DNA from: a virus
Lineage: Duplodnaviria > Heunggongvirae > Uroviricota > Caudoviricetes
Length of the DNA: 64,000 nt
Strand: one strand, 5' to 3'
IMG/VR virus record: IMGVR_UViG_2721755711_000002
Positions 1 to 63,425 of this stretch are shown in pieces. The translations under genes were made by a program, and so were the position numbers. Each line of letters opens with the position of its first letter. Within the stretch, counting starts at the first letter, position 1. The notes under the pieces were generated by a model. The model saw only the letters and a program-made list of their open reading frames with translations, ran no database searches and had not been told where the DNA came from.

Positions 1-1020
1 TTACTTACTGACCACAAGAGGTAGATCCAGTGTTGGCGTGATTTTTGTTTTGCGATCATAAATCAACACCTGATTTTCTGTTTTGTGCCCACTGAAAATT
101 TGTTTGTCGCGGCTGCTGCCTTCGTAATCTGAAATCCCTTTGGCTTTTATGTCATGGAAGTTGCACCCAAACGGAACGCCGGCTTTTTGCTCGGCTGCAC
201 GTTTAGCCTGATTCCACCAGTTGTTCAGCGTTTTAGCTATGACCTTCCCGCCTTTGGTTGTGTTGATCACATACTCGCATGTGCCGGAAGATACATTTCG
301 GGCTAATTGGATCACTGTGCGTAATCGTGGAGACCATTCCTTGATTTGTTTAGTGCCGGTCTTGTTTTGCTCAATGTAAATCCCTTTATCCATAATATCC
401 TGCCATTTCAGCTCGAGTACATCACCGAGCCTTGCCGCACAAAGATAGGATATCTCCATTGCAATACGTAACTGTGGAATTGCTTCCGCATATATTGCAG
501 CATACTGTTCATCGGTGATGTAAACAGTACGGGCTTTAAGTGTGAATTTTCTGACTCCTTTGCATGGATTATTTTTCACATACCCACGCTCATATCCCCA
601 TCCGTATACACGGCTCAGACTTGCCAGTTCATGGTTTGCCTGGGTCTTGCTCTCAAGTCCTCGCTTATCCATGAAAATTCTTACCTGTTCAATTTTTACA
701 TTATCAGCAAGCACTTTTCCGAATACTGCCAACAATGCCCTTTGATGTTGCCGATAATCTTTTTGGGTTCGGGGGGCCAGTTCTGTAAATGCAGGGGAGT
801 CCATAAACATGTGCCATAATTTAGCTACTGTCATTATGTTGTGGAGTTTTGCTTTTTCCAGCTCATAATTTTGCCAGACTTTAGCTACGCTGGTTTCCCG
901 CACTCTTCCGAGCCCTATAGTTCTTGTGCTTCCTTCGGGTTTCCATACGTAACTGTAACCATTCGATCTAACACGCGGTGGTAGTGCATTATCTTTTTTG
1001 TTTTTTCTTGGTCTTCCCAT
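1..1020 (-). CDS. int: Tyrosine-type site-specific integrase, complete (stop codon at window positions 1-3)
   Basis: 339-aa ORF with phage-integrase-like sequence; Xis-like ORF overlaps its start; position at prophage left edge. Confidence 0.85.
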   Translation of the reverse strand: MGRPRKNKKDNALPPRVRSNGYSYVWKPEGSTRTIGLGRVRETSVAKVWQNYELEKAKLHNIMTVAKLWHMFMDSPAFTELAPRTQKDYRQHQRALLAVFGKVLADNVKIEQVRIFMDKRGLESKTQANHELASLSRVYGWGYERGYVKNNPCKGVRKFTLKARTVYITDEQYAAIYAEAIPQLRIAMEISYLCAARLGDVLELKWQDIMDKGIYIEQNKTGTKQIKEWSPRLRTVIQLARNVSSGTCEYVINTTKGGKVIAKTLNNWWNQAKRAAEQKAGVPFGCNFHDIKAKGISDYEGSSRDKQIFSGHKTENQVLIYDRKTKITPTLDLPLVVSK

Positions 1021-1240
1021 TGTTCAGCGCCTCAAAATCGGGTTCAGCGGAAACCAGTTCAGGTGCTTTTGGCATCGTAGTCAGTCCGTGTGGAATATCC
1101 CTGCGAAGAACTATTGGTTCGTTTTTAGGACCGATTACAAATGGGATACCGTGCAGCCTTAACTGGTGTTGCTGTTTTGTGTATCGCTCGTATTTCGTGA
1201 TCTCTTGAATCTCTGCTGGCGATAGAGTTAATTCGTACAT
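989..1240 (-). CDS. xis: Excisionase-like small basic protein
   Basis: 83-aa ORF overlapping the integrase start, same strand; classic int-xis arrangement. Confidence 0.55.
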   Translation of the reverse strand: MYELTLSPAEIQEITKYERYTKQQHQLRLHGIPFVIGPKNEPIVLRRDIPHGLTTMPKAPELVSAEPDFEALNNGKTKKKQKR

Positions 1241-3891: not shown

Positions 3892-4095
3892 TTACGGCGC
3901 TGTTTTAAGTCCTGCCGGGATTTCGTTATTATCCTGGTGAATAACTTTATCGACCGGATAACAGTTACCGGGAATTTTCTGTTCATCTGCGGCAGCCATG
4001 CATTCTTTCATTGAGCTGTATACGCCAGTAACCATGTCAACTGGTTCACCGGAAACAAGAAAAACCGTCAGAACAAGTGCAAATGTGGTATTCAT
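3892..4095 (-). CDS. Small secreted protein of unknown function (signal-peptide-like N-terminus)
   Basis: 67-aa ORF from MNTTFALVLTVFLVSG; start overlaps stop of upstream ORF (ATGA coupling). Confidence 0.4.
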   Translation of the reverse strand: MNTTFALVLTVFLVSGEPVDMVTGVYSSMKECMAAADEQKIPGNCYPVDKVIHQDNNEIPAGLKTAP

Positions 4096-4280
4096 TGCCA
4101 GCATCCTTTTTGCGTCGGGCGTAAACGGGCCAGCATTGAAGCAATGCATATCTCATTTGATGAATCTGGCTCATGCTTTATCTGATTAATGGCATCCTCA
4201 ATAAAGTTTTTATCGCCAGTGATAACGCCAATTTCAAAACGAGTCTCAGGCGTAGTGGAATTGAGTAATAACGTTTCCAT
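4095..4280 (-). CDS. Small hypothetical protein
   Basis: 62-aa ORF from internal ATG with GAGG ribosome-binding site; translationally coupled to next gene. Confidence 0.35.
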
Positions 4281-4832
4281 TATCGCGTCCTCAACAATGA
4301 ATTTTGTGATGCGGTGCCTGGTGCCTCCAGGTGACGTTAACCAGTTAACAATTAACGCCGGAATACAGGGACCCGCCTGCAAGTACCTACCCATAAGTAT
4401 TGATACGGAGAACAAATGGTCTTTTAACTGTTCCGCGTGCGCTTAGCCGCATTCACCACATCACAAAATTCACTTTAAAAAGGGCGGACATCAGCCAGCA
4501 ATTAAACTGATGCCGCCAAAGGTCAATACTCAACATGGAGTGTTGTAGCGGGGTTGTCACTTAAGCGTATGGTCAACCTGCCAACCCGGTGCCACAATGG
4601 GGTAAGGATAACCCCGCCATACTTACCGCCGCGCCATTTCGCGGAGTGCCACAACCGGAAGCGCACGGTCGAAGAAATCTAACGACAAGACTTCTAAGGA
4701 AAAGAAACCTTCGCCGTGCGATTTCGTGTTGTGTGCCTGCTTTTAACCACATCAGGCGAGGTGGTTCCTGTTGTTCCCCAACAACAAGAAATTTGTATAA
4801 TCCGGATACCCCAACAACACAGAGAGTTAAGA

Positions 4833-5351
4833 ATGCTATCTGGAATAACTTCATCAATAACGGCAATTAAAGTCTCGATTGATTTATTACAGGTAATACT
4901 TGATGCAAAAAGCCAATCTGAACGTGAAAAGGCTGTCTACGAAATGCGTCGCCAACTGGCAGACTTACAAATACAGAACGCAGAGCTAGCGAAAACGCTC
5001 GCGCTTCAGTACGAGGAAATACTCTTGCTTAAGCAAAAATGTCATGAAATTGACGAGCGTAATCGAAAACTTGAATGCTATACGATACACAAAACTGGTT
5101 TTGGGCATTTTGTCTATGCTTTCAGGAACAGCCTCGACGAAGAAGACACATGTTTTCACTATGCCTGTCCCAATTGCTATCAGCATGGTGTAATAGCAAT
5201 ACTTCAACCTGTTGAAATTGGTGAGCATGATAAGTTCCATATTTCTAAATGCCTGAAATGTGATTCGCGCTTTAAATTTGAACGCAATGATGACTATATA
5301 CCGCCCCCATCTGAAGAAGAGATAGGTAGAGCATTGAGCAGCAATCCGTAG
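4833..5351 (+). CDS. Hypothetical coiled-coil protein with C-terminal CxxC...CxxC zinc-ribbon-like motif (moron candidate)
   Basis: 172-aa ORF on opposite strand to neighbours; AT-rich by eye; upstream TGTATAAT extended -10 at ~4793-4801. Confidence 0.5.
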   Translation: MLSGITSSITAIKVSIDLLQVILDAKSQSEREKAVYEMRRQLADLQIQNAELAKTLALQYEEILLLKQKCHEIDERNRKLECYTIHKTGFGHFVYAFRNSLDEEDTCFHYACPNCYQHGVIAILQPVEIGEHDKFHISKCLKCDSRFKFERNDDYIPPPSEEEIGRALSSNP

Positions 5352-5513
5352 GTTATTGCTGTTGTGGATATCCAGATTGTTAAAGAGCATGCCGGAAGGT
5401 TATCCGTGTCCGGCGCACGACCACACGTAGCAGCGTGTTGGTCTCCATTTTTAATTCACCCCTTAATGGAGGATAAAATAATCGTGGTGCTGGTCGGCTC
5501 GGTCCCGCAGGTG

Positions 5514-6149
5514 TTACCCTTTAAACCAGTCAATCCAGAGTGGATAGTGTTCAGCATAAATATAGCTATACACATCCAGGTTGTATTTGCGGTCTGTCCT
5601 TAGCAGGTCGCAAATACAGGCCGCAGCTTCCAGGGCAGCAGCTTTGTTGCTGAATAACCATGTAGCAACATTCCGGCGATTATCTGTATCCCACTCTTTT
5701 GTGAGGGCTGACACCACGAAGGAGCCGTTGGTGTTGCCATCAAATACTTCCGTTTCCAGATTTTTAAGTAATGCCTGGTGAATTTTTGCCAGGTATTCAG
5801 TCGGAATTTCGCCACGAATTCGGATAAGTTTGTCATAAACAAACATGTTCCCCGCATATGGCGATTTTTCTTTCTTTTGTTCACTGGCAGGCTGGTCAAT
5901 TTCGTCTTCGGTTGGTTTCGTATTGATGTTTTGCACTGTCGTTTCTGCAATTTTCTTTGCCACACTCTCTGAGTCGTGTTTATTTTCAGGCGCACAGGAA
6001 TACAGTCCGACAAACGCATCTCGCACATTTCGAGCCATATTATCAGTGTCTTTTTTCGTTACCGATTCCAATGCAAGTTCGTTCAGACGTTGACGTAGTG
6101 TGTGTACTGCAATCTCCTGGATTGATAGCGGTAAATCTTTAAATTCCAT
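5514..6149 (-). CDS. Hypothetical early-left-operon protein
   Basis: 211-aa ORF from second ATG (GAGG site); no family recognised. Confidence 0.5.
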   Translation of the reverse strand: MEFKDLPLSIQEIAVHTLRQRLNELALESVTKKDTDNMARNVRDAFVGLYSCAPENKHDSESVAKKIAETTVQNINTKPTEDEIDQPASEQKKEKSPYAGNMFVYDKLIRIRGEIPTEYLAKIHQALLKNLETEVFDGNTNGSFVVSALTKEWDTDNRRNVATWLFSNKAAALEAAACICDLLRTDRKYNLDVYSYIYAEHYPLWIDWFKG

Positions 6150-6160
6150 CGTTAACCTCA

Positions 6161-6397
6161 TCAGTCAGTATTTCTGGCTAACCAGCGACGCGCGCCAGCT
6201 TCGGTTTTAAACGTTTTGCTTTTGGTATACGTCATCGCGGTGAACGTACCGTCCTGGTTTGGAAACACGCCGTATACCAGAGATTCGTTGTTGCCAAGAT
6301 CGATAGTATCCATGCTGACCTCATTTCCCCTTAACGCCGGGGTAGCGGAACAAAAACCTGCTGCATAGTTAAAGTTGAACCCTGCCGTCATGTTCAT
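6161..6397 (-). CDS. Small hypothetical protein, first gene of leftward early operon
   Basis: 78-aa ORF immediately downstream of operator-like palindromes; stop abuts next gene. Confidence 0.45.
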   Translation of the reverse strand: MNMTAGFNFNYAAGFCSATPALRGNEVSMDTIDLGNNESLVYGVFPNQDGTFTAMTYTKSKTFKTEAGARRWLARNTD

Positions 6398-6577: not shown

Positions 6578-6997
6578 TTATGATGCGTTTTGTGCTTTCT
6601 TTTTACGGATTTCTTCGTAGATCATATTGTAATACTGTTTTTTCTCTTCAAGAGTTTTTAATAAGTTATCCGCTTCACTTTCTGGCAGTTCGTCTAAGAG
6701 ATCTAAAAAAATACGTTGTCGTGGCGTTAGAACCCTTGTTTCATAATTGGAGGCTGTGTTCGTTGATGATGAAACGATACCATCCATCCATCCTCGGGGT
6801 AACCCAAAGGACTCTTCGATAATCTCCACCATATCATCAGCGATCCGTTTTTTTCCCTTTTTCCCCTCTGGGTACAACATTCTTGATACATAAGAAGGCT
6901 CGCGACCGATTTTTCTGGCTACGTTAACCGCTTTACCATCGCATTTCTCATCACGAATTTTGATGAGTTGCTGTCGTCTAAATTCATATTTGTCCAT
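6578..6997 (-). CDS. Prophage repressor-like DNA-binding protein (Rac RacR-like position; no S24 peptidase domain recognised)
   Basis: 139-aa ORF divergent from Cro-like gene; HTH-like segment VNVARKIGREPSYVSRML. Confidence 0.55.
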   Translation of the reverse strand: MDKYEFRRQQLIKIRDEKCDGKAVNVARKIGREPSYVSRMLYPEGKKGKKRIADDMVEIIEESFGLPRGWMDGIVSSSTNTASNYETRVLTPRQRIFLDLLDELPESEADNLLKTLEEKKQYYNMIYEEIRKKKAQNAS

Positions 6998-18379: not shown

Positions 18380-19921
18380 ATGCCAACAGTTCCAATTTCT
18401 ATGAGAAAACTTAAAGAAATTCTTAGGCTTAAATACGGTGTTGGACTCAGCCATCGACAAATTGGTCGTAGTCTTGCAATCTCCCCTTCCGTTGTATCCA
18501 GATATGCTAATCGGGCGGCTCAACTTGGCATAAAGCAGTGGCCCTTACCTACAGGATGGGATGATACAAAACTAAAACATGCGTTCCTTCAGACCCAGGT
18601 TAAGATGAAGAAGCACTCTCTGCCTGACTGGGCTACAGTACACCGGGAACTGCGTAATAAATGCGTGACGCTGCAGCTACTCTGGGAAGAATACTGTGAG
18701 CGTAATCCAGGCGGTTTTTACAGCTATAACCATTACTGCCGGATGTACCGTGAATGGCTCAAAACCACTTCACCATCAATGCGTCAGGTACATAAAGCTG
18801 GCGAAAAACTTTTCGTTGATTACTGTGGACCTACCGTTGGCGTTACCGACCCTGAGACCGGAGAAATAAGAACTGCTCAGGTCATCGTAGCTGTTCTCGG
18901 GGCATCAAGTTACACATGGGCAGAGGCCACCTGGTCTCAGCAGCTTGAAGACTGGGTGATGAGTCATGTTCGCTGCTTCCAGTGGTTGGGTGGCGTTCCT
19001 GAACTTGTTGTTCCGGACAATCTGAAAAGCGCCACATCCAGGGCATGTAAGTATGATCCTGACGTTAACCCTACCTACCAGCAGATGCTTGAGCATTATA
19101 ATGTCGCAGTTTTGCCTGCGCGGCCACGTAAACCGAAAGATAAAGCCAAAGCTGAAGTTGGCGTTCAGGTTGTTGAACGCTGGATCATGGCCCGAATCAG
19201 GCATGAGATCTTCTACAGCCTTGCATCGCTTAATCAGCGCATTCGGGAGTTGCTGGAAAGACTGAATAACAAAATAATGCAGAAGTTGGGTTATTCACGT
19301 GCAGAACTCTTCATCCAGCTTGATAAACCCGCACTGAAGCCTCTTCCTGAAGCCAGTTACAGTTACACCCTGGTGAAGAAAGTCAGAGTTCATGCCGATT
19401 ACCACGTGGAAATCGACAAACATTACTACTCGGTTCCATGTTCGCTGTTAGGCCAGCAACTGGAAGCATGGATCTCCGGAGAACTGGTAAGACTCTTCAA
19501 TCAGGGGCAGGAGGTTGCTGTGCACCCGCGCAAGCGTACTTATGGCTACAGTACCCGCAACGAGCACATGCCTGAAGCTCATCGACAGCATGCCACCTGG
19601 ACGCCAGAGCGTCTTCTGGAATGGGCGGGGCACATAGGCAGTGAAACTCATAGTTATGTGCTTCATATACTGAACTCTCGTCCACATCCGGAACAAAGCT
19701 ATCGCTTCTGCCTTGGACTCCTGAACCTTCATAAAAAATACAGTAAAGCCAGACTTAATGCAGCATGTGCAAGAGCTCTGAAAACAAAGGTATGGCGTCT
19801 GTCAGGTATTAAATCGATCCTGGAAAAAGGTCTGGATAAACAACCTGTTCAGGATCCAAAACCAGATCTGTTATCCACGATGGAACACGAAAACGTACGC
19901 GGCAGTGAGTATTACCACTGA
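18380..19921 (+). CDS. istA: IS21-family transposase IstA
   Basis: 513-aa ORF with N-terminal HTH and DDE integrase-like core. Confidence 0.85.
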   Translation: MPTVPISMRKLKEILRLKYGVGLSHRQIGRSLAISPSVVSRYANRAAQLGIKQWPLPTGWDDTKLKHAFLQTQVKMKKHSLPDWATVHRELRNKCVTLQLLWEEYCERNPGGFYSYNHYCRMYREWLKTTSPSMRQVHKAGEKLFVDYCGPTVGVTDPETGEIRTAQVIVAVLGASSYTWAEATWSQQLEDWVMSHVRCFQWLGGVPELVVPDNLKSATSRACKYDPDVNPTYQQMLEHYNVAVLPARPRKPKDKAKAEVGVQVVERWIMARIRHEIFYSLASLNQRIRELLERLNNKIMQKLGYSRAELFIQLDKPALKPLPEASYSYTLVKKVRVHADYHVEIDKHYYSVPCSLLGQQLEAWISGELVRLFNQGQEVAVHPRKRTYGYSTRNEHMPEAHRQHATWTPERLLEWAGHIGSETHSYVLHILNSRPHPEQSYRFCLGLLNLHKKYSKARLNAACARALKTKVWRLSGIKSILEKGLDKQPVQDPKPDLLSTMEHENVRGSEYYH

Positions 19922-19932
19922 TACGGGATCCA

Positions 19933-20682
19933 ATGATGAATCATCTTTACGAACAACTGACCGCACTTAAACTCACCGGCTTCCGTGATGCGCTTAAAAA
20001 GCAACTTGCTCAGCCGGGCACATACCAGGAGCTGGGCTTCGAAGAACGCCTGTCATTACTGACAGCAGAAGAACTAACCTGCCGTGAAAACAGGAAGGCA
20101 GAGCGTCTGATCAAACATGCACGGTTCAGACTTAATGCTGAGTTATCAAAGCTGGATTATCGTAACAATAGAGGGCTGGACAGGGCCCTCATCCGTTCAC
20201 TCAGTCAGGGAAACTGGTTAACCCTGAAACAAAATATTTTACTGACCGGGGCCACCGGCAGCGGTAAAACGTTCCTGGCATGTGCACTTGGTCATAATGC
20301 CTGCCGACAGGGATACAAGGTCTACTATTATCGCCTTAAAGCGCTGATGGAACAGTGCTATCAGGGGCATGCTGATGGAAGATACAGCAAACTTTTGACC
20401 AGGCTGAATAATAGCGATCTGCTGCTTCTGGATGACTGGGGGCTGGAACCTCTCTCATCAGAACAGCGTAGCGACCTGCTGGAAATAGTGGATCTGATGT
20501 ACCAACGAGGCTCAATCATCGTAGTGAGCCAGTTGCCGGTGGAAAACTGGTACAAAATGATCGGAGACTCCACACATGCGGATGCCATCCTAGATCGACT
20601 GGTTCATGGCAGTATCAAGATCGAACTTAAAGGAGAATCAATGCGGAAAATACAATCTCCGTTGACCGAAGGAGATCAGTGA
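19933..20682 (+). CDS. istB: IS21-family helper ATPase IstB
   Basis: 249-aa ORF with Walker A LTGATGSGKT and Walker B LLLLDDWG. Confidence 0.9.
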   Translation: MMNHLYEQLTALKLTGFRDALKKQLAQPGTYQELGFEERLSLLTAEELTCRENRKAERLIKHARFRLNAELSKLDYRNNRGLDRALIRSLSQGNWLTLKQNILLTGATGSGKTFLACALGHNACRQGYKVYYYRLKALMEQCYQGHADGRYSKLLTRLNNSDLLLLDDWGLEPLSSEQRSDLLEIVDLMYQRGSIIVVSQLPVENWYKMIGDSTHADAILDRLVHGSIKIELKGESMRKIQSPLTEGDQ

Positions 20683-29479: not shown

Positions 29480-31761
29480 CAGTAAGTTCCTCCCGTGCCT
29501 CTGTTGCCGTCCTGAAGGTTGTATTTGTTCACTGCCTCCGCCACGACCTGACCATCGAGCACCAGTTGTGTGGTGAAATTAATGGGGCTGGCAGGTGGTC
29601 CCCAGTGCGTGAGGTATTCCGGCTGGGTGATGCGTCCGGGTTGCTTTGATGCTGTTTCAGACGCTGCCATTCCGGCTTGCTGTCGGACTTGTTCTGGTGT
29701 TGGCAGAGAATCACCGGCGATAACCCCGGTTTTTTTCAGTTCGTCAAGATACTGCTGGATCCATTTCTCGTTTTCTGTTGAGTAACCTTCGCCAAACTGC
29801 CACCACGGCTGATATTTTTCACGGGCAGCATCAATCAGCCACTGAGGATATTTAGCCCGTATATTTTTCCAGCGCTCCTCGCTTCCTTCGACGGCGGCGT
29901 CTTCTTCCGGGCTGGTTGCAGTGGCCAGTGCCGTAACGGTGCCACCGAAAGAAAGCAGGCTACCGGCAATGCCGGGGAATTTAAATCCTTTGCCTTTTTT
30001 GACCGTGTTTTCAATTACATCACCGACAACCTCGCCAGCCTTGCCACCGGGTTTACCCCCGGTCAGGATTTTGATCCCGGCCCATGTCAGAGCCGCTGCG
30101 GTCATCGCTTCAATGGCTGTCGTGGCACCCACCACTGCTGTGGTCAGCCCCGGAAATTTTTCACCCGCCCAGCTTATGGCATCGGCCACAGTACCGGACG
30201 CATCAGCCAGCTTTTTCATGCTGTCCATTTGTGAAAATTCAAGCGTGTTTTTAGCCTGTTCGGTTTTAAAATCATTCGTGCCTGACATGAATTTAAAATC
30301 CAGATCTCCGGCGCGCTGACCTTCTGGCAGGGTGCGTTGCTGACTGATTTCAGCTTCGACCTGCTTTCGGTATTCCGGGTTATTCCTGTAAGCCAGGATT
30401 GCCTTCAGTGCCTGCATATCACCGACAAGCTCACCAACACCGAACCCCTCAAGAATTTTCGCCATAGACTCCAGAATTTTGTCCTGCTGGCCTTTGTCTT
30501 TTGTTGCTGCCAGGCGCTTCTGAAGCTCCTGATATTGTTTGTTGTTCGCGGCGACTTTATCAGCAAGGCGTGAAAATGCCTCTATCGGATCAATGCCGTT
30601 TTCCATAGCTCGGGTCAATGTACCGGGTAAATCAATACCCTTTCCATCAATCGTGATGCTTTTCGCCCTTGTTGCTGATTCACTACTGAAAAGTTTGGCC
30701 AACAGGTTTACAACGTTATTACCTGCCTCACTGCTGCTGCCTGCGGCAATACCTGCGACCTCATTAAATGCCAGTAATTTCTGGAATCCATCCAGTCCTT
30801 TCATTCCGGCGTTACCAGCTAACGCCATCTGAGGTCCAAGATGCTCCGCCATATCCCGTAGCTCAAAATTACCGGCTTTACCGGCTGCAATAGCCATATT
30901 AAACATGGCCGGAAGATCGTTGTCTGTCAGTCCAAATGTTTGCTTAGCTTTGGCCGCCATAGTGACCAGATCGCGTGGGGATGCACCGGATGCAGTAGCA
31001 AATTTCATAATCTGCGGTAAGAGATTATTCGCGGTATCCCAGGAAAAAGCGCCGCTGGCCAACATCTCATTCATTGCTTCAGCTGCATCCTCTTTCGTTC
31101 CGCCACCATACGTTACCGCCGCGCGGATACTGTTTTTCAGCTTTTCACGCCCAAACTGCCTGCCTTCCAGACCACCATCACTGAACGCCGTGTTCGCCAT
31201 CATGCTGAGCTGACGTTCATAACTCATTTGATTTCTGACTGGTTGCGTCATAATGGCGGCCCCTGCCATAATTCCGCCGCCTATTGTCACGGCATTCCCG
31301 CCAAATGCAGCCGCACGGGCAAAACGCCCCCGTTCAGGGATAACAGGCGTTTTCGCCATCTTCATCTGAGCCTGAGTGACGCCATCCAGTTCACGCTTGA
31401 GTGCCCGGGCTTTTTCCCGGGTGGCCTGCATGGCGCGCTCCTGCTCCTGCGCAGATTCAAAACCGGCGCGGGCCAGACGGTTATAGCTGGCAACCGTCTG
31501 ATAAATTTCACGCCGGATTTCACGTTCTGCACGAATACCGAGCGTTTCCCGGGCACGGGCGGCACGCTGTATCTCTTTTGCCGCCTTTTTCGTGCTGTTA
31601 ATGCTTTCCTGCTCGGTACGCTTCTGCTCTGCGCCTGCCTTCCGTGTCGCCTTTGTTACACCTTCGGTGGCTTTGATAACCTGTTTTTGTCCCTTTTCCA
31701 GAACCTGCGAGGCTTCGTCCTTCGCAGTCAGGGTCATGCCAACTTTGAAATTACCGGCCAT
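29479..31761 (-). CDS. Tail tape measure protein
   Basis: 760-aa ORF, Ala/Gly-rich with central hydrophobic segments. Confidence 0.85.
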   Translation of the reverse strand: MAGNFKVGMTLTAKDEASQVLEKGQKQVIKATEGVTKATRKAGAEQKRTEQESINSTKKAAKEIQRAARARETLGIRAEREIRREIYQTVASYNRLARAGFESAQEQERAMQATREKARALKRELDGVTQAQMKMAKTPVIPERGRFARAAAFGGNAVTIGGGIMAGAAIMTQPVRNQMSYERQLSMMANTAFSDGGLEGRQFGREKLKNSIRAAVTYGGGTKEDAAEAMNEMLASGAFSWDTANNLLPQIMKFATASGASPRDLVTMAAKAKQTFGLTDNDLPAMFNMAIAAGKAGNFELRDMAEHLGPQMALAGNAGMKGLDGFQKLLAFNEVAGIAAGSSSEAGNNVVNLLAKLFSSESATRAKSITIDGKGIDLPGTLTRAMENGIDPIEAFSRLADKVAANNKQYQELQKRLAATKDKGQQDKILESMAKILEGFGVGELVGDMQALKAILAYRNNPEYRKQVEAEISQQRTLPEGQRAGDLDFKFMSGTNDFKTEQAKNTLEFSQMDSMKKLADASGTVADAISWAGEKFPGLTTAVVGATTAIEAMTAAALTWAGIKILTGGKPGGKAGEVVGDVIENTVKKGKGFKFPGIAGSLLSFGGTVTALATATSPEEDAAVEGSEERWKNIRAKYPQWLIDAAREKYQPWWQFGEGYSTENEKWIQQYLDELKKTGVIAGDSLPTPEQVRQQAGMAASETASKQPGRITQPEYLTHWGPPASPINFTTQLVLDGQVVAEAVNKYNLQDGNRGTGGTY

Positions 31762-40251: not shown

Positions 40252-41414
40252 GATGCCTCCGGGGTGTCCTGCATAACCCAGCCTGTCAGCACGTCATCCT
40301 CAACCGTCGCCACTGACCAGCGGTCGCCCGACTGTAACGCATACCGCCACGCGTTGCCGTCCTGCGTGACATGCTCCGCCCGTTCGATGGTCTGCTGCAT
40401 CAGCACATAGTCGGCGGCGGTCGGGGGCGTGTCTGTTGCACTGAGGCGCTTCATGACGTCAGCCGTAAGGTTTACCGTCTGCCGTGCAGCGCCCGTGGCG
40501 GCGACCTGTTCCGGTGAACGGATGGCCAGCGGATATCGCTGGCGCGCATCCAGTTCGCTGACGTTCGCCAGTCCCCGGGCAAAATCCGGCCCGGTCAGGG
40601 TGCCGGTGACATACTGGCGGGCGCTGCGGTAATCATATTTTTCCAGTTCCGGCTGCCATGCCACCCGACCGGGATTAAATCCGAAGCCCGGGTCGGCGGT
40701 ATACACGGAGCCGTCCGGCATCTTCAGCCCCATTGTTCTGATGGTCTGGCCCGGCTGGCCATATTCCTGCTCAACCTCAACCAGTCGCCCCTCGCTGCTC
40801 TGCACCGTCAGGCCGTATTTCTCCACATCAGACGCCGAACGCGCCCGGATACGGCAGCGGCAGTGATAACCGTCCGGGGTGTATAAAAACTCCCAGACCG
40901 GGTCATCCGCCCGGGCGGTAAAACCGTTCAGGGCGGCGTGTTTCGGACGGGTGTGAAGGTCCATCACTGCCACGCGTTCAAAATAAGGCCGATCAGCCAC
41001 GTTCGCCATCTGTTGTTGATAACGCCCGGCGTTATATGACGACTGAATGTTGGTATCAAATATCGTGCGTAACCGGCGCGGCGTCAGTTGTCTGCCATGC
41101 AGTTCGCCGGTGTCCTCGTCCACAATCAGTTTTTTACCCAGCCAGCCTTTTGATTCCAGCAGTGGTTCCAGTTGTGCAGCAAACTCCCGGAACGTCCCGC
41201 CGTCAGCCAGTGCCGCCGTCAGGCCATCACGGACATCCTTCAGAACATCCAGTTTCAGCACACCCGCCACCGTGAACGCCCGGGCGTTGGCGATGTCCTT
41301 CACATCGTGCCAGCGGAAGCCGATAACGTACCCCTTGCTTTCGAAATACTTGATCGCTTCTTCCGGTTTCAGGGTGTACGCATAACCCAGGTCAACATCG
41401 TCAGCTGTCGGCAT
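40248..41414 (-). CDS. Head morphogenesis protein (Mu F-like)
   Basis: 388-aa ORF immediately after portal. Confidence 0.75.
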   Translation of the reverse strand: MPTADDVDLGYAYTLKPEEAIKYFESKGYVIGFRWHDVKDIANARAFTVAGVLKLDVLKDVRDGLTAALADGGTFREFAAQLEPLLESKGWLGKKLIVDEDTGELHGRQLTPRRLRTIFDTNIQSSYNAGRYQQQMANVADRPYFERVAVMDLHTRPKHAALNGFTARADDPVWEFLYTPDGYHCRCRIRARSASDVEKYGLTVQSSEGRLVEVEQEYGQPGQTIRTMGLKMPDGSVYTADPGFGFNPGRVAWQPELEKYDYRSARQYVTGTLTGPDFARGLANVSELDARQRYPLAIRSPEQVAATGAARQTVNLTADVMKRLSATDTPPTAADYVLMQQTIERAEHVTQDGNAWRYALQSGDRWSVATVEDDVLTGWVMQDTPEAS

Positions 41415-42996
41415 TCAGTCGCCCCCAGATATCCGCCACAAAGAATGCCTGCGTCAGCAACTGCCGCAGCGTGTCATCCGGCAGCTCCGGCCATGCTTCC
41501 GCCAGTACGTTCATGGCCTCGTCTGCATCCCGGCCTTCCTGTATGGCCTGCACCAGTGGGGCCACCAGTTCGTTCATCCCCTGCGCGATGGCCTCTGCCG
41601 GAAGCTCTGCCCGGTCGATGGTGCACTGTGCCGGGTCGTCCTCCCCGTTGTCCTGCTGACTGAGTACAGCAACATTCAGCCGCTCCCTGTGCTGGCTGAG
41701 GCCCGCCTGCGCAGGGAGACGCTGTGCCACTGGTACCAGTACCTCTTCGCCGTCTTTCGGGGTGGGGATACCGGTTTTTTTACGTACCCACGACACCGGG
41801 ATATCCTTCATCCCCACGTTATTGACCAGTATGCTGATGGCTTCCGCCACGCCCTTAATATCAGACTCCTGCTGTACATCGAATACCAGACGTGGCAGAC
41901 GACGAACCGGGATATCCTTCCAGCCATTCAGGCTGGCCATCATCTGGATCAGACTGCTGAACATGCCGGACAACTGGCGGGCATCGGCGGCCAGAATATC
42001 GTGACGGACCTCGTTGTGGATCACACCCAGCGCATTGGTGGAGGTTTTACCGTCTGCCTGTGTGGTTAACGTGCTGCCAAGAATGGCTTTTGAGGTGGTC
42101 CGCTCTGCCCAGTCCACCATCGCCATAAAGGCCTCCGGTCCGCCTGATGCGGCCTCCTTGAATTCAATCTCGTTACCCTGCGGCAGGGCTGCCACCGCTT
42201 CATGGCCCAGATTGACCAGGGCTTCGAGAATGTTGTCCCGGTCTTCGTCACTGGTGCCCTGTGCATAGTACGCAATACGCGCCGGAAGGCCGTAAATCTC
42301 CAGGAATTCCGCCATATCACGCAGCGCAAAGTTTTTGAACAGATACGGCCAGACCAGTACGCGGAACAGGCCGGATGAACCCAGGAGCCCCGACCGGGCG
42401 TTGTAACGGTGAACCAGCCAGCCGAACGGCCACAGTGCGGAACCGTCCTTACCATCTTCCCCGCGACCGCCGTCATCCAGCCGGAGTTCGTCATTGTGTT
42501 CCGGCAGGGTTATGAACCAGTTATGCGGGCGCAGCGTCACCGCATCCGGTAACCACGTTTTATCCACGAACGCCCAGCTGATTTCCTGACAGCTGAAGCC
42601 GTAACCGACACTGCTCATCCCGTTGAGGATGATGTCCTCCATGTCCGGGATACCGTGCAGCCATTCATCCACGGCGGCGGCCAGCTCCTTTTCTGCCTTC
42701 GAGGCATTGCGGGGCGGCTCCACCGACCAGTCCAGCGTCAGCAACGCTTTTTTGCGCTTTTCCATCTCGGCGAACAGATGGCCATCACGTTCTTCCATAT
42801 CCGCAAACAGCATCGCCTGCGCCGGAAGATAACCGCGTTCGGCAGCTTCCAGAATGCGCGGTAGTTTTCTGATGTTCAGACCACGCGACGGGTGGTCGGG
42901 ATAAATGCGCAGCCGTTCTGCCACTCTGACCGACTGCGTGGTTTTGAGTGCCTCACGTTTCAGCGGGCGTCCGTAAATATCAACAAGCTGTGCCAT
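41401..42996 (-). CDS. Portal protein (Mu gp29-like)
   Basis: 531-aa ORF following large terminase. Confidence 0.8.
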   Translation of the reverse strand: MAQLVDIYGRPLKREALKTTQSVRVAERLRIYPDHPSRGLNIRKLPRILEAAERGYLPAQAMLFADMEERDGHLFAEMEKRKKALLTLDWSVEPPRNASKAEKELAAAVDEWLHGIPDMEDIILNGMSSVGYGFSCQEISWAFVDKTWLPDAVTLRPHNWFITLPEHNDELRLDDGGRGEDGKDGSALWPFGWLVHRYNARSGLLGSSGLFRVLVWPYLFKNFALRDMAEFLEIYGLPARIAYYAQGTSDEDRDNILEALVNLGHEAVAALPQGNEIEFKEAASGGPEAFMAMVDWAERTTSKAILGSTLTTQADGKTSTNALGVIHNEVRHDILAADARQLSGMFSSLIQMMASLNGWKDIPVRRLPRLVFDVQQESDIKGVAEAISILVNNVGMKDIPVSWVRKKTGIPTPKDGEEVLVPVAQRLPAQAGLSQHRERLNVAVLSQQDNGEDDPAQCTIDRAELPAEAIAQGMNELVAPLVQAIQEGRDADEAMNVLAEAWPELPDDTLRQLLTQAFFVADIWGRLNADS

Positions 42997-53931: not shown

Positions 53932-54171
53932 TCATTGCCATACGACGGTGCAGCCGTCGATACAGGATGTTTTCACCACGCGGCGCAGGCCGCTGAATGT
54001 CTGGATGATTTCCGTTACCGGCCATACAGGACCACCCACAGGCGGGCAGGCATAAACCACAGGTAAACGGTGATGTTGCCCCGTTACACGACCGCCGGTG
54101 GTGTGGATGGCCACACGGGCACGGGAACGGACGGCATTAATGGTCTGCTTTTCCATCATTTTGTTCTCCAT
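53932..54171 (-). CDS. Hypothetical early protein
   Basis: 79-aa ORF just downstream of B. Confidence 0.4.
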   Translation of the reverse strand: MENKMMEKQTINAVRSRARVAIHTTGGRVTGQHHRLPVVYACPPVGGPVWPVTEIIQTFSGLRRVVKTSCIDGCTVVWQ

Positions 54172-55064
54172 CAGTGAATTAACATTTCTGAATATTTATC
54201 AATGGCCTGCACACTGACCGGTGCATCGCTGATATCACAAATCCGGTACACACCACGCGCCAGCTTGAACAGACGACGGGCATTACCCAGCGAACGTGTG
54301 TAAAGTGCCTCACCAATTTCCGGGTCCGCCGCTTCCGGCATCATGTCTGTGGCAATCTTGTTAAAATCTTCCTGCGTCAGCGTATCGCCCAGGTTAAGCG
54401 CCAGCGCCACGCGGCTGTATAATTGAGCGAACTCACCACAACGGCCCTTAAGGTTAATCAGAAGGTGAGGCATACCCGCCAGGACAATCCCGATACCCGC
54501 TTTGTCATGCAGACGGCGCAATACCTCCAGTGCACGATAGGGGAGCAGTTCAGCCTCATCCACCATCAGCAGACGACCTGACCCACGCAGTTCACGCACA
54601 CAGGCATCAATCTTCTCGCGAATATCGCCGTGAACCTTTATGCCCAACTGGCGGCACAGTTCATCGAGTAACTTTCTGGCCGTATAGCCAATATCGGCTT
54701 CAATGAGCACTACATCCCGGTTTCTGGCGGCATATTCACTCAGAATCATGCTTTTACCCAGGCCCGCCGCGCCATACAGAACGCAAATATCACACTCCAG
54801 ATGGGCGTAGGTCAGTACTTCCAGCCCTTTGGCAGCCATGCCGGTGGTGACAAATCGCACTTTAATACGGCGGTTGTTTTCCTTTTCCCATTCACGGGTC
54901 ACAAAGGCAGAAATGCGTTCTTCAATATCAGCCATATCGCCCTGATATTTGCCCTGCAAATACTGGTTGATAACAGCGCTGCTACGACCAATAGCACGGG
55001 CAACGTGGGTCTGCGTAAAGCCGCGACGGGCCATTACGTCATTTAATTGCGTAATTAAACTCAT
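54171..55064 (-). CDS. B: DNA transposition protein B (AAA+ ATPase, Mu B-like)
   Basis: 297-aa ORF with N-terminal HTH and Walker A GAAGLGKS; follows transposase A. Confidence 0.85.
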   Translation of the reverse strand: MSLITQLNDVMARRGFTQTHVARAIGRSSAVINQYLQGKYQGDMADIEERISAFVTREWEKENNRRIKVRFVTTGMAAKGLEVLTYAHLECDICVLYGAAGLGKSMILSEYAARNRDVVLIEADIGYTARKLLDELCRQLGIKVHGDIREKIDACVRELRGSGRLLMVDEAELLPYRALEVLRRLHDKAGIGIVLAGMPHLLINLKGRCGEFAQLYSRVALALNLGDTLTQEDFNKIATDMMPEAADPEIGEALYTRSLGNARRLFKLARGVYRICDISDAPVSVQAIDKYSEMLIH

Positions 55065-55082: not shown

Positions 55083-57125
55083 TTAACGATTATTTGTGCC
55101 GTTTTTCTTTAAATTGCGCTCACGGTCAGACACGAATAAATAAAGTTCTTCTTTTTCCTTTTTCTCCTGGCGTTCCAGTCCATATCCCAGATTAAACTCA
55201 GGTTTCTGCGTAATAGCCGGGGTAAGTTCGCGTTTAGCCTCTTCGATTTTCTGCGTGGCCCGTGCAATGCGGCCTCGGGCGCGTTTCTCCTGCTGCTGTT
55301 CGATAACGGCTTTCGGGAACGCATCGACCTTGTTACCGTTCCAGATGGCATCGCAGATATAAGAACCGTCCATTCGCCTGACAATCACGCTGTTTGCGTC
55401 GTGAATGTCGTAACAAACCCTGACTTCATTTCCGTGCTCTGCTGCCAGTTCTGTGGAGAAATAGATGTTTCTGAATAACACCACTTCACCGCGTCGCACC
55501 GTGCAGATGCTTTCCGGTCGGAACATTTCATGCAGTTCTTCCGGCGACAGCATGTCGATTTCAGCCTTTTGCTCTTTTATCAGTTTCCGGCGATACGCTG
55601 CCGGGCTGTAATGTTCGCCATCCTCTTTGCGGGGAAGGCTGCTGTGTGGTCGGTTGTTATACCGTTTCACCTCCAGCTCTATTGCGGCCAGCAGTTGCTC
55701 AAAGGTGGGGACTTCTCCCATCGCTTTAACCTGCCGTTTTGTCAGCTCTTTCCCTTTGTGGGTGGCCTTAATGGCTGACTGTGTGATGCGTTGCTGCATC
55801 ATCACCGTTTCCTTGTCTGCATTTTTTGAGCAGTACGTCTGGAAACTCAGGGCCACATCTTTGGGTATTCCTTTGTTTGCCCGTTCTATTACCCCGCGCC
55901 CCTGCGGGTTACCAGGTATCCCCGTGTGATGCTCCACACCCAGTCGGGGCAGAATCCCGGTAATATCGGCATCAAGCACCCGGTTTTTTTCACCGCCCCC
56001 GTTATCGGAGTAATAAATCAGCGGTATTCCGTGTTGTGACATGCCATGACGCAATGCATCAGCAACGGCTATCACGTTCTCCGACAGGGACAGCGACCAG
56101 CCCACAATAAAGCGTTGCCCCGCATCCATAACCAGCGTCACTTCTGGCCGGAATGTATTCCCGGTGGCGGGGCTGAATGCCATCAGTTTCATACAGTGAC
56201 CATCCCCGACCCATACCGCATTAACCGGTAATGTGCTCCAGTCGCGCCGCACAAAGGGATTGAGCGAACGCCAGGCTGAACCGGTGGAGCGGAAACGCTC
56301 CTTCACAATCACCGGGACGTTGCTTAACACCCGTCTTACTGCGTGAACTGAAGGCAGTGCTGCCAGCATTCCTGCGTCATTCGCGTGCTTTTCATGCCAC
56401 CAGGCTGAAAACTCGCGATACGCATATTCAACGGTCGGGCGCTTCCATGAGCGATAGAACATAAAGAAATCGCTCAACCACCAGACCTGCTCCCACGGTG
56501 TTCCCTTATGATGACCGGGAGCCAGTAACGCCAGTAACTGATTGGCATCACCGCGCGCCATCAACCAGGCGGAATACCATTCCTGCAAACTTCCCCAACT
56601 GACGCCAGTTCGCTTACCCTGTCTGGCGTTTGCAGTGCCTGCGGCCTCAATAATGCGGTCAGGTAACGCCCCCATGCGCACACCATCAATGATGTGTTTT
56701 ACTGCTGCCGTCCTGGACATTCCTGCGTATTCACGCAGTTTATGCACTTCGGTAGCCAGCAATATCCGCGCATCAGCGATGGCCTTTTGCTTGTCGGTCA
56801 GTGCCTGAACTTCGCGTAATGCCAGTTCCGGGCATTTGACCATCACTTCCAGTTCATCGCGAACGGTGACGTTTTTAACTGCCTTCTGCTCAACCACGGC
56901 GGGCAGTTGCGCATCTTCCAGAACCTGATGAGTCAGGCGCTTACGTAAAACTTTCTGCGCTTCAGTGGGCAGGCAGTCGATGTGATACTCGAATGCTTTG
57001 GTGCCTTCACGCTTGCGCTTCCATTCCGGGTGCGTCTCTGTGATCCGATTGAGCGTCCAGCGCACCCCCTGAACTGTACCGGGCAAACCAGGAAGACCGG
57101 CCAGCTCATTGGCTGAATAAAACAT
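55083..57125 (-). CDS. A: Mu-type DDE transposase A
   Basis: 680-aa ORF; N-terminus ANELAGLPGLPGT resembles MuA; ner-A-B order. Confidence 0.9.
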   Translation of the reverse strand: MFYSANELAGLPGLPGTVQGVRWTLNRITETHPEWKRKREGTKAFEYHIDCLPTEAQKVLRKRLTHQVLEDAQLPAVVEQKAVKNVTVRDELEVMVKCPELALREVQALTDKQKAIADARILLATEVHKLREYAGMSRTAAVKHIIDGVRMGALPDRIIEAAGTANARQGKRTGVSWGSLQEWYSAWLMARGDANQLLALLAPGHHKGTPWEQVWWLSDFFMFYRSWKRPTVEYAYREFSAWWHEKHANDAGMLAALPSVHAVRRVLSNVPVIVKERFRSTGSAWRSLNPFVRRDWSTLPVNAVWVGDGHCMKLMAFSPATGNTFRPEVTLVMDAGQRFIVGWSLSLSENVIAVADALRHGMSQHGIPLIYYSDNGGGEKNRVLDADITGILPRLGVEHHTGIPGNPQGRGVIERANKGIPKDVALSFQTYCSKNADKETVMMQQRITQSAIKATHKGKELTKRQVKAMGEVPTFEQLLAAIELEVKRYNNRPHSSLPRKEDGEHYSPAAYRRKLIKEQKAEIDMLSPEELHEMFRPESICTVRRGEVVLFRNIYFSTELAAEHGNEVRVCYDIHDANSVIVRRMDGSYICDAIWNGNKVDAFPKAVIEQQQEKRARGRIARATQKIEEAKRELTPAITQKPEFNLGYGLERQEKKEKEELYLFVSDRERNLKKNGTNNR

Positions 57126-61027: not shown

Positions 61028-61537
61028 ATGGCAACGCAGGCGGAGGTAGCCGAGCATCTTGGTATAACTGAACGCTGGTTGCGGGATCTTCAGAAGCACC
61101 CGGGAGCGCCAAAAAATCGAAAGCGTGGTGAATACGATATTGATGCCTGGCGATATTTTTATATTTCATACCTTAAACGCAAAGGAAGAAGCGATACTGA
61201 TGACGATGGAAATAGCGATTACGAAGAAAAATTACTTATCGCCAGATGGAAATTGACTGAAGAACAGGCAATAGCACAGCAATTAAAAAATCAGGTAACC
61301 GAAGGCAAGCTCATTGATTCTGGGTTCTGCGTTTTCGCTCTCAGCAAACTGGCGATGGCATTGTCCAGTACGCTTGATTCCATTCCTTTATCCATGCAGC
61401 GACAGTTCCCGGATTTAACCCCGCGTCATATCGATTATCTGAAAACCCTTATCGCAAAAGGCGCGAATCAGTGTGCGCGGACAGGGGATAAATTGCCGGA
61501 GTTACTCGATGAATATATCCGAACTACAGCTGAATAA
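61028..61537 (+). CDS. nu1: Terminase small subunit (lambda Nu1-like)
   Basis: 169-aa ORF; central region aligns with lambda Nu1 (FC.F.LS..A...S.LD..PLS.QR.FP.L..RH.D.LK). Confidence 0.8.
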   Translation: MATQAEVAEHLGITERWLRDLQKHPGAPKNRKRGEYDIDAWRYFYISYLKRKGRSDTDDDGNSDYEEKLLIARWKLTEEQAIAQQLKNQVTEGKLIDSGFCVFALSKLAMALSSTLDSIPLSMQRQFPDLTPRHIDYLKTLIAKGANQCARTGDKLPELLDEYIRTTAE

Positions 61538-63425
61538 TATGATGGCTGCTGTTTCAGTTGCGCTGCAGCCTCTGGTCAGGGTTGTACCGATGACGGCAGT
61601 TGAATGGGCTGATCAAAATTATTATCTGCCTAAAGAATCGTCATACGGTGATGGGGAATGGAAAACACTGCCGTTCCAGGTCGCCATTATGAACAGCATG
61701 GGGCACGACAGGATCCGCACTGTTAATCTGATTAAATCGGCGCGTGTGGGTTACACCAAAATGCTGCTGGGCGTGGTCGGGTATTTTATTGAGCATAAAT
61801 CCCGTAACAGCCTGCTCTTCCAGCCGACAGATTCCGCAGCTGAAGATTTTATGAAAGCGCATGTGGAAGCAACGCTCCGGGATGTCCCCAGCCTTAAAGC
61901 GTTATCGCCATGGCTGGGCAGAAAACATCGTGACAACACACTCACTCTGAAGCGTTTTTCCTCCGGCGTGGGGTTCTGGTGCCTGGGGGGTGCCGCTGCT
62001 AAAAACTACCGTGAAAAATCAGTGGATGTGGTCTGCTATGACGAACTCTCCTCGTTTGAACCGGATGTGGAAAAGGAAGGCTCGCCAACGCTGCTTGGCG
62101 ATAAACGTATCGAAGGTTCGGTATGGCCTAAATCCATACGCGGCTCAACGCCAAAAATTAAAGGTTCCTGTCAGATTGAAAAAGCCGCGAACGAATCTGC
62201 ACATTTTATGCGGTTTTATGTGCCATGCCCTCATTGTGGTGAAGCCCAGTATCTTAAGTTTGGCGATGATGCGACAACCTTTGGCCTGAAATGGGAGAAG
62301 GGTAAACCGGAAACGGTGTATTACCTGTGTGAACATAATGGCTGTGTGATCCGGCAGTCGGAGCTTGACCAGACCGACGGGCGCTGGATTTGTGACAATA
62401 CCGGGATGTGGACGCGTGACGGCCTGGCATTTTACAGCGCCGGTGATGAGGAGATGCCGCCACCGCGCTCAATCACGTACCACGTGTGGACAGCGTACAG
62501 TCCGTTCACCACCTGGGTACAGATTGTTTATGACTGGCTGGATGCGCTGAAGGATCCGAACGGTGTCAAGACGTTTATTAACACCACGCTCGGGGAGCCC
62601 TATGAAGAGGCCGTGGCAGAAAAACTGAGCTTTGAGTTGTTGCTGGAAAAAGTCTGCCACTATGATGCGCAGGTTCCCCTGCGGGTGGTTTACCTGACTG
62701 CCGGGATCGACTCCCAGAAAGATCGCTATGAAATTTATGTCTGGGGCTGGGCTCCCGGCGAAGAAGCCTTTCTGATTGACAAGCAAATTATCATGGGGCG
62801 ACCGGAGGACGAGGACACCCTTAAACGTGTTGATGCGGTGATCCGGAAAAAATACCGCCATGCTGACGGTACTGAAATTTCCATTTCCCGCGTCTGCTGG
62901 GATACCGGTGGTATCGACCAGGACATTGTGTATCAGCGTTCCAGGAAACACGGCACTTTTTTTGTGCTTCCCATAAAAGGGGCATCGGTGTATGGCAAGC
63001 CGGTGATCACCATGCCCAAAAAGCGCAACCAGCGTGGTGTGTTTTTGTGTGAGGTGGGCTCCGATACCGTCAAGGAAATGCTGTACGCCCGTTTTGCCCT
63101 GCCGGTGGTTTCTGCCAGTGAAGCAGCCCCGTATACCTTCCGTTTTCCGGATAACCCGGACATTTTTTCGGAAGAAGAGGCGCGTCAAATCGTAGCGGAA
63201 GAACTGGTGGAAAAGGTGGTTAACGGCAGGGTGAAACTGCTGTGGGATAAAAAAGGGCGACGCAACGAAGCCCTCGACTGCCTGGTATATGCTTATGCCG
63301 CCCTGCGCGTTTCGGTACAGCGGTGGCAACTGGACCTTGAAGCGCTGGCGAGGGCACGAAGAGATGAGCAGGATGAGGATGATATGAGCATGGAAGAGAT
63401 CGCGGCTGCACTGAGTGGAGGATAA
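61509..63425 (+). CDS. A: Terminase large subunit (lambda gpA-like)
   Basis: ~639-aa ORF from MNISELQ; strong colinear similarity to lambda A (TAVEWADQNYYLPKES...). Confidence 0.9.
   Translation: MNISELQLNNMMAAVSVALQPLVRVVPMTAVEWADQNYYLPKESSYGDGEWKTLPFQVAIMNSMGHDRIRTVNLIKSARVGYTKMLLGVVGYFIEHKSRNSLLFQPTDSAAEDFMKAHVEATLRDVPSLKALSPWLGRKHRDNTLTLKRFSSGVGFWCLGGAAAKNYREKSVDVVCYDELSSFEPDVEKEGSPTLLGDKRIEGSVWPKSIRGSTPKIKGSCQIEKAANESAHFMRFYVPCPHCGEAQYLKFGDDATTFGLKWEKGKPETVYYLCEHNGCVIRQSELDQTDGRWICDNTGMWTRDGLAFYSAGDEEMPPPRSITYHVWTAYSPFTTWVQIVYDWLDALKDPNGVKTFINTTLGEPYEEAVAEKLSFELLLEKVCHYDAQVPLRVVYLTAGIDSQKDRYEIYVWGWAPGEEAFLIDKQIIMGRPEDEDTLKRVDAVIRKKYRHADGTEISISRVCWDTGGIDQDIVYQRSRKHGTFFVLPIKGASVYGKPVITMPKKRNQRGVFLCEVGSDTVKEMLYARFALPVVSASEAAPYTFRFPDNPDIFSEEEARQIVAEELVEKVVNGRVKLLWDKKGRRNEALDCLVYAYAALRVSVQRWQLDLEALARARRDEQDEDDMSMEEIAAALSGG

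Follow-up and report, generated by a model that had tools for sequence, protein, structure and literature searches.

The gene at positions 4833-5351 of IMG/VR record IMGVR_UViG_2721755711_000002 (Caudoviricetes), of which a stretch of 64,000 nucleotides (nt; hereafter the window) was analyzed, is probably a moron that a lambdoid prophage carries in its sieB slot and that works as a single-protein antiphage defense of the Rip1 ("ring interacting pore 1") family. Judged by both sequence profile and structural model, its product is a Rip1-family member, and the gene is a rare, strongly diverged representative of a known family for which a structure has been solved. The original prediction, made from the sequence alone, was of a defense or exclusion gene, and it is supported both by this family membership and by the location of the gene, which is the classical sieB superinfection-exclusion slot. 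In a review of Patel et al. 2026 (Nature 651:1060), Rip1 is presented as a prophage-encoded, single-protein antiphage defense that is harmless alone (PMC13434031; also PMC12908700). The same text describes a 12-mer Rip1 ring that surrounds the 11-mer small terminase, or senses the portal, and an N-terminal amphipathic helix that makes a pore, so that the infected cell is killed ahead of phage maturation (PMC13434031). PDB entry 9oox, by its title a cryo-electron microscopy structure of the complex between Rip1 of Escherichia phage HK446 and the T6 small terminase, has 12 Rip1 subunits around 11 of the terminase.

Identification of the protein as a Rip1-family member

The open reading frame (ORF) is intact; it starts at ATG 4833 on the + strand, ends with TAG 5349-5351, and encodes 172 amino acids (aa), as originally described. 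The mechanical ORF opens at GTG 4716 and would give 211 aa; the N-termini of homologues agree with ATG 4833 as the start. A single-sequence homologue search returned near-identical proteins only, and the family came into view through an exhaustive search of 1.84 billion cluster-representative proteins (E<=1e-3) together with a profile. The exhaustive search matched 343 cluster representatives, in support of + as the coding strand, nearly all of them 145-175 aa long with CxxC motifs at about positions 111 and 137, and the family extends to Pseudomonas Mu-like phages and alphaproteobacteria. A phmmer search of the PDB matched one entry, chain L of 9oox (Rip1; E 6e-9), in an alignment that includes both CxxC pairs, and a profile of 59 relatives matched the same chain at E 3.4e-36 over profile positions 4-149 of 154 and chain residues 14-159, with the next PDB match at E 1.5e-4. 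BLASTP to HK446 gp37 (Rip1) gives 24% identity at E 6e-12. The protein also matches PHROG 1244, a group of unknown function, at E 7.5e-32, and there was no significant match in Pfam, NCBIfam, or PADLOC, the NCBIfam model ECs_2282 CxxC being a weak match (E 0.016) to the zinc knuckle only.

The CPNC...CLKC motif recognized at the outset is present as C112-P-N-C115 and C140-L-K-C143. These four cysteines are invariant in alignments of 59 and 75 sequences and align with the cysteines of HK446 Rip1, and Y83, G91, and L124 are near-invariant in the 59-sequence alignment. The two CxxC pairs presumably form a four-cysteine, zinc-binding knuckle. Modeled with AlphaFold2 from 75 homologues, the protein has a mean predicted local distance difference test (pLDDT) score of 85.7 and consists of helices at residues 2-24 and 28-80, followed by a beta-rich four-cysteine domain (83-150) and a short helix at the C-terminus; what had been proposed as an N-terminal coiled coil thus appears in the model as a long N-terminal helical region. 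A Foldseek search of the PDB with this model ranks 9oox_M/L first (E 4.8e-7, probability 1.00, template modeling score 0.67 normalized to the target), and the next match is at E 0.34. Remote homology and structure prediction, which had been suggested as a check, therefore both point to Rip1 (9oox). Residues 2-24, a predicted helix, are the most hydrophobic segment (mean hydrophobicity <H> 0.37-0.40, hydrophobic moment muH about 0.3) and may be compared with residues 7-30 of HK446 Rip1; no transmembrane segment is predicted in the protein. The C-terminal tail (residues 151-172, with a helix at 161-169) is not found in most relatives.

Long helices followed by a C4 motif also lend the protein a superficial likeness to the DksA/TraR proteins, which combine a coiled coil with a zinc finger and bind RNA polymerase, and TraR-type genes do occur in lambdoid early-left operons. 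However, Pfam zf-dskA_traR is not matched at E<=0.1, none of the 50 best Foldseek PDB matches is of this kind, and the cysteine spacing (CxxC-24-CxxC) and beta-rich domain differ, leaving such an assignment extremely improbable. It is also conceivable, if rather improbable, that the protein shares its ancestry with Rip1 but acts otherwise, for example by a SieB-like abortive exclusion without a ring-templated pore or in response to another phage trigger. The identity to HK446 Rip1 is just 24%, the tail at residues 151-172 is missing from most relatives, and the HK620 relative hkaP is annotated as a 'putative superinfection exclusion protein' by position alone. Nevertheless, the protein has no transmembrane segment and no match to Pfam SieB, whereas a true SieB cargo behind the same upstream module matches PF14163 at 1e-27. 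Furthermore, the homology to Rip1 is full length and includes the N-terminal helix and the four-cysteine domain, to which pore formation and ring binding are assigned in the structure as summarized in the review (PMC13434031).

Genomic slot and spread of the allele

The position of the gene is consistent with its identification as rip1-like. In HK446, rip1 is flanked by N and a ral-like gene of the early-left operon and is on the opposite strand, the hkaP genes of HK620 and HK630 are family members in the same opposite-strand slot, and so are the alleles of E. coli TK3046 (WP_050940250.1) and phage PhiR29_2, which are 31-34% identical. Homologues in Pseudomonas Mu-like phages, such as JBD30 gp30, are likewise oriented opposite to their neighbors. 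In the window, the ORF is antisense within a leftward early operon, between a 215-aa gene and DicF/dicB, and all neighboring genes are on the - strand, as was first noted. With its own promoter homologue and terminator and its opposite orientation, the arrangement is as in HK446 and JBD30. The operon had been described as a leftward recombination operon; it is leftward and does contain a RecE-like exonuclease, but a more apt description is that of a PL-type early-left operon, "dicBF", in a Rac/Qin-like lambdoid prophage, with the exonuclease among its genes. The gene is indeed AT-richer than its surroundings, with a GC content of 0.405 versus 0.514 for the window (1.2 percentile among 519-nt windows), 0.49-0.51 for the immediate flanks, and 0.42-0.49 for neighboring genes. 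The comparison with related prophages that had been proposed shows the ORF or a diverged allele conserved at the same position, and the refuting outcome named with the prediction, an absent or unconserved ORF over a conserved antisense sequence, was not seen.

The allele itself was found in 2 of 5,426 complete E. coli genomes. The copy in E. coli PapRG-04-4 (NZ_CP049201.1; L001 5326-5646) differs from that of the window by one nucleotide, a C-to-T change that converts CAA to TAA at codon 68, and two 106-aa database proteins (P0005 and P0006) correspond to this truncated form, annotated from an upstream GTG. Strain 41 differs from the window coding sequence at six nucleotides, four of which are synonymous. 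In seven further E. coli draft genomes, the allele always lies between dicB and the DUF1391 gene, beside several different repressors and immunity modules. This varied company is consistent with a recombining cassette, and an unchanged allele beside different immunity modules implies recent spread by recombination. Carriers of the allele differ in the 215-aa PHROG-2151 gene, which some have (L203 and L206) and others lack (L200-L202), so this part of the operon is also mosaic.

Predicted promoter and transcript

The original prediction also gave the gene its own extended -10. A promoter of its own is supported by homology to the mapped P22 sieB promoter and not by the hexamer itself; the extended -10 does not hold in its canonical form, as TATAAT 4796-4801 is preceded by TTG and places TG at -14/-13 rather than at the canonical -15/-14. 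The bare TATAAT is not above chance, with 14 in the window versus 17.4 expected. Approximately 110 bp upstream of the ATG align with the P22 sieB region, register-exact to the sieB promoter (29690-29720) and RNA start (29727) annotated in the P22 record. The identity is 82% over the 61 nt under the annotated promoter, and the alignment reaches the start codon. This stretch of ~110 bp is conserved among loci with coding sequences that are ~30% identical or unrelated. A scan for consensus promoters and terminators missed the promoter, because of its poor -35 and 19-nt spacer, and missed the bulged terminator.

Predicted antisense RNA module

Read on the other strand, the upstream element matches sas, the 127-nt antisense RNA of P22, whose sequence was reported from RNA-seq (PMC13397905, Table 2). 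In P22, sas begins just inside the start codon of sieB, spans the leader and a hairpin with a GGGG loop, and reaches an invariant CCACC..GCCUGAYGUGGUUAAAAG..CAGGC region, and the antisense RNA is made in lytic growth and turns off translation of the cargo (PMC12197685, PMC13397905). The hairpin next to the core of this module is predicted in both the window and P22 and folds at <=-7 kcal/mol in 81% of 94 unique variants versus 35% of control segments. In a loop-anchored pair count over 24 unique GGGG-loop variants, each of the four loop-proximal pairs is retained by 23-24 variants and occurs as 3-4 pair types; the bases of the first hairpin are fixed by the search pattern, and these covariation counts cover the hairpin next to the core. 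When the antisense region was aligned with MAFFT and folded with RNAalifold, the variable hairpin was not recovered, as its covarying arms are scrambled in such an alignment; Rfam has no family for the region. A direct repeat has one copy in the hairpin region and another where the predicted mRNA begins, and between module variants both copies change in step (CCCCAACAACA, CCCCTACAG, TTCCACAGTCAA, CCCCAATGCAA). One possibility is that this co-change reflects antisense pairing between the loop and the 5' end.

Two forms of the module can be distinguished. In long-form modules, the hairpin loop and 3' arm are duplicated at the mRNA 5' end. Short-form modules have neither the duplication nor TATAAT; their hairpin carries the Shine-Dalgarno sequence in its own 3' arm, and TGGTATCCT, which resembles an extended -10, closes the core. 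At 4735-4766, which is the invariant 3' part of the sas-like RNA, GCCTG/CAGGC and AACCAC/GTGGTT interleave, so that this part could fold into either an H-type pseudoknot or a pair of alternative hairpins.

Proposed mechanism and alternatives

In a lysogen, PL would be repressed and the rip1-like gene would be transcribed from its own PsieB-type promoter, starting near 4808 and ending at 5419-5452, to give a protein that would be harmless by itself. Late in the development of a superinfecting phage, ring oligomers of the small terminase or portal would be surrounded through the C-terminal four-cysteine domain, and ring-templated oligomerization would gather the N-terminal hydrophobic/amphipathic helices into a membrane pore. 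The inner membrane would then fail and the cell would die or lyse ahead of progeny maturation, amounting to abortive infection. When the resident phage itself enters lytic growth, leftward transcription would produce a sas-like RNA (from about 4837 to 4718) that covers the ribosome-binding site and start codon, turning the gene off and avoiding self-exclusion as in P22 sieB/sas. The family membership, slot, and promoter and antisense homology come from the analysis presented here, whereas the defense steps would be those of published Rip1 and the shut-off that of P22. Our confidence in the antisense shut-off is lower than in the Rip1-type defense function.

Several points weigh against a functional Rip1-type defense under antisense control. 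The account of the Rip1 mechanism derives from a review and the title of a PDB entry, and at only 24% identity to HK446 Rip1 the trigger specificity of this allele, or even its activity, may differ. For the RNA, the antisense region has an unremarkable single-sequence fold z-score (-1.1), and a consensus scan found no sigma-70-like promoter for it inside the coding sequence, so the antisense shut-off rests on P22 homology and read-through from PL. The codon 68 nonsense mutation is present in one of the two complete E. coli genomes with the allele, and the gene must therefore be dispensable in some lineages. Finally, the interruption of the host prophage by an IS21-family element and a Mu-like prophage means that the gene could be a relic, although its ORF, promoter, and terminator are intact.

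The last two points would fit a moron that looks intact but has decayed, a relic of the Rip1 family that sits in a crippled prophage and no longer protects, as would the rarity of the allele in complete genomes and the fact that the nonsense copy is a single nucleotide away from the window sequence. We nonetheless consider this unlikely. The ORF is full length with every invariant residue present, the -10 matches TATAAT perfectly, the terminator is intact, most of the differences from strain 41 are synonymous, and the unchanged allele stands beside several immunity modules, implying recent spread. Moreover, prophage-expressed defense genes stay useful to the host even in defective prophages.

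The orientation of the gene could also suggest a mainly regulatory role, as it runs head-on to the operon directly upstream of DicF (4482-4528) and dicB, and its promoter module is conserved whatever cargo follows. Convergent transcription would then hinder leftward transcription into dicF/dicB and keep these toxic division inhibitors off, with the protein being secondary. This is very improbable, as the module and cargo are also found in phages without dicF/dicB (HK446, HK620, HK630, P22, and PhiR29_2), and the protein family is conserved well outside the dicBF context, in Pseudomonas Mu-like phages and alphaproteobacteria. A Rip1-type defense, with the protein as its effector, remains the preferred interpretation of the locus.

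The upstream module as a possible cassette slot

The module upstream of the gene and its many uncharacterized cargos are the part of this work most worth pursuing, and interest in the gene itself is modest. Using the 25-nt upstream DNA core CTTTTARCCACRTCAGGCNNGGTGG as a search pattern, we found it in at least 120 IMG/VR contigs and in 70 stretches of GTDB representative genomes, with carriers that include Escherichia, Citrobacter, Enterobacter, Proteus, Providencia, Morganella, Xenorhabdus, Photorhabdus, Arsenophonus, Serratia, Pantoea, Hafnia, and Edwardsiella. Among the matches listed, an ORF starts 35-200 nt past the core in 153 of the 169 loci with enough downstream sequence, SieB (PF14163) is the largest cargo cluster (34 loci), and the Rip1 family is the second (26-29 loci), these proportions being rough because the set includes a few loci fetched on purpose. 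The ORFs behind the core fall into at least 28 unrelated cargo clusters among loci L008-L199. Other cargos are small uncharacterized proteins, including a 144-147-aa family, a 106-aa membrane protein, zinc-ribbon proteins, and proteins of 166 aa and 167 aa, and Pfam and PADLOC gave no assignment of note for these clusters. The core also occurs on very short, low-coverage contigs assigned to Nocardioides, Paenibacillus, Enterococcus, Bradyrhizobium, and Arthrobacter (core loci on contigs of unrelated taxa: L142, L144, L145, L153, L156, L175, L179, L181, L182, and L187), which most likely reflects contamination of assemblies by lambda/coliphage DNA and not true occurrence.

Given these data, we tentatively propose, as an idea that is possible but short of probable, that the ~110-bp sieB/sas module marks an opposite-strand cassette slot in early-left operons across Enterobacterales and serves as a universal RNA off-switch for the carrier's own defense cargo in lytic growth. 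Such a cassette system has not been generally recognized so far. SieB and Rip1 are the only ones of the at least 28 cargo families with a known exclusion or defense function, and the remaining families are candidate new exclusion or defense genes. If the proposal is correct, these families would offer a ready source of new small antiphage genes, and self-immunity to Rip1 would be RNA-based, with the sas-type hairpin and repeat co-varying with the cargo leader. The shared sieB/sas module suggests how an induced prophage escapes its own ring-sensing defense, and it points to a compact, easily searched hotspot for further candidate defense genes. The Rip1 family was described only in 2026 and is absent from PADLOC 2.0.0; PHROG 1244, HkaP, WP_050940250.1, and the window ORF, all still labeled hypothetical, can now be named. 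The diverged allele may also be useful for mapping the residues that set Rip1 trigger specificity.

Other features of the window

The features of the locus and of the surrounding prophages are collected in Table 1. A 134-aa antisense ORF (4986-5390, -) was dismissed as mechanical, as the + frame holds all of the homology and all of the invariant residues. An STnc100-like match at 4261-4480 (-) overlaps the dicB leader and coding region, and in PhiR29_2 such a match directly adjoins the promoter/sas module, without DicF. The RecE-like exonuclease has a central low-complexity region, between its Exonuc_VIII and Rv2179c-like domains, with a tandem repeat of NDQKAEQNSPNALQ (two copies) and a CxxC...CxxC motif, CTTCSQTGGGNCPDC. 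An AraC-family regulator gene (16858-17778, +) lies inside the lambdoid prophage just ahead of the IS21 element and may be another moron. The IS21-family element and Mu-like prophage break the lambdoid prophage at ~18380-57200, and lambdoid late genes resume past the Mu-like prophage with a gpA-type large terminase (61473-63425). A second Rip1-like gene was looked for in the Mu-like prophage of the window and was not found.

Table 1. Features of the rip1-like locus and its surroundings, in window coordinates.
Feature	Position	Strand	Basis or remark
Integrase (int)	1-1020	-	
Excisionase-like (xis)	989-1240	-	
RecE/Rv2179c-type exonuclease, 835 aa	1307-3814	-	
DUF1482 gene	3892-4149	-	
dicB	4092-4415	-	
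DicF-like small RNA with terminator hairpin	4482-4528	-	37.9 bits, below the Rfam gathering score of 48
Putative sas-like antisense RNA region over start codon, Shine-Dalgarno, leader, and two conserved hairpin regions	4718-4837	-	Ends by homology to the 127-nt P22 sas
Highly conserved core CTTTTAACCACATCAGGCGAGGTGG	4740-4764		With GCCTG 4735-4739; alternative hairpins or pseudoknot possible
Covarying hairpin TTCCTGTTGTT-CCCC-AACAACAAGAA	4765-4790		
PsieB-type promoter: weak -35 equivalent TTGTTC 4771-4776, 19-nt spacer, -10 TATAAT 4796-4801	4771-4801	+	Homology only
Predicted mRNA start, A before CCCC, equivalent to P22 sieB RNA start; 25-nt leader	4808	+	Inference
Direct repeat CCCCAACAACA, second copy, at 5' end of predicted mRNA	4809-4819	+	First copy at 4776-4786
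Shine-Dalgarno-like GAGAG, 6 nt ahead of ATG	4822-4826	+	GAGAG(T) conserved
rip1-like coding sequence, 172 aa plus stop	4833-5351	+	ORF, homology, model
C112-P-N-C115 codons, first CxxC of zinc ribbon	5166-5177	+	Invariant in alignments
C140-L-K-C143 codons, second CxxC	5250-5261	+	Invariant in alignments
Terminator-like bulged hairpin GACCACACG...CGTGTTGGTC, then T run	5419-5452	+	+ strand only; no T run on - strand
215-aa PHROG-2151 gene	5514-6161	-	
DUF1391/ydfA-like gene	6161-6397	-	
Repressor gene	6578-6997	-	
IS21-family element, istA	18380-19921		
IS21-family element, istB	19933-20682		
Mu-like prophage, Mu portal	41401-42996	-	
Mu-like prophage, MuB-like	54171-55064	-	
Mu-like prophage, MuA transposase	55083-57125	-	

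Comparison with known systems

The closest characterized system is HK446 Rip1 (gp37, PDB 9oox), which the protein resembles in full-length homology, fold, the four cysteines, and a predicted hydrophobic N-terminal helix, at a size of 164 aa versus 172 aa here, and with which the gene shares the opposite-strand early-left slot and upstream module. The two differ in that identity is only 24%, the window allele has a C-terminal tail of about 20 residues, and the HK446 gene is flanked by N and ral, whereas the window gene is flanked by DicF/dicB and the 215-aa gene of a Rac/Qin-like prophage. HkaP of HK620 and HK630 and the PhiR29_2 and TK3046 alleles belong to the same family (28-34% identity) and share the slot and upstream element but have diverged, and HkaP is annotated only as a 'putative superinfection exclusion protein'. 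More distant are JBD30 gp30, D3112 orf25, and the homologues of DMS3 and MP38 in Pseudomonas Mu-like phages, which are of the same family at about 28% identity over 90% of the length but lie in the late (packaging) region without a sas-type upstream module.

The superinfection-exclusion module sieB/esc/sas of P22 was reportedly described by Ranade and Poteete in 1993. As annotated in BK000583, it occupies the same slot and has a homologous promoter, RNA start, leader, and sas RNA, but P22 SieB is a membrane protein (PF14163) unrelated to the Rip1-family cargo found here, and there is no evidence in the window locus for an internal product like Esc of P22. Bacterial gasdermins and RexB-type effectors have no sequence or fold relation to the rip1-like protein and would share with it, judging from Rip1, the outcome of membrane failure before phage release. 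They differ in that Rip1 combines sensor and effector in one small protein that is templated by phage ring oligomers.

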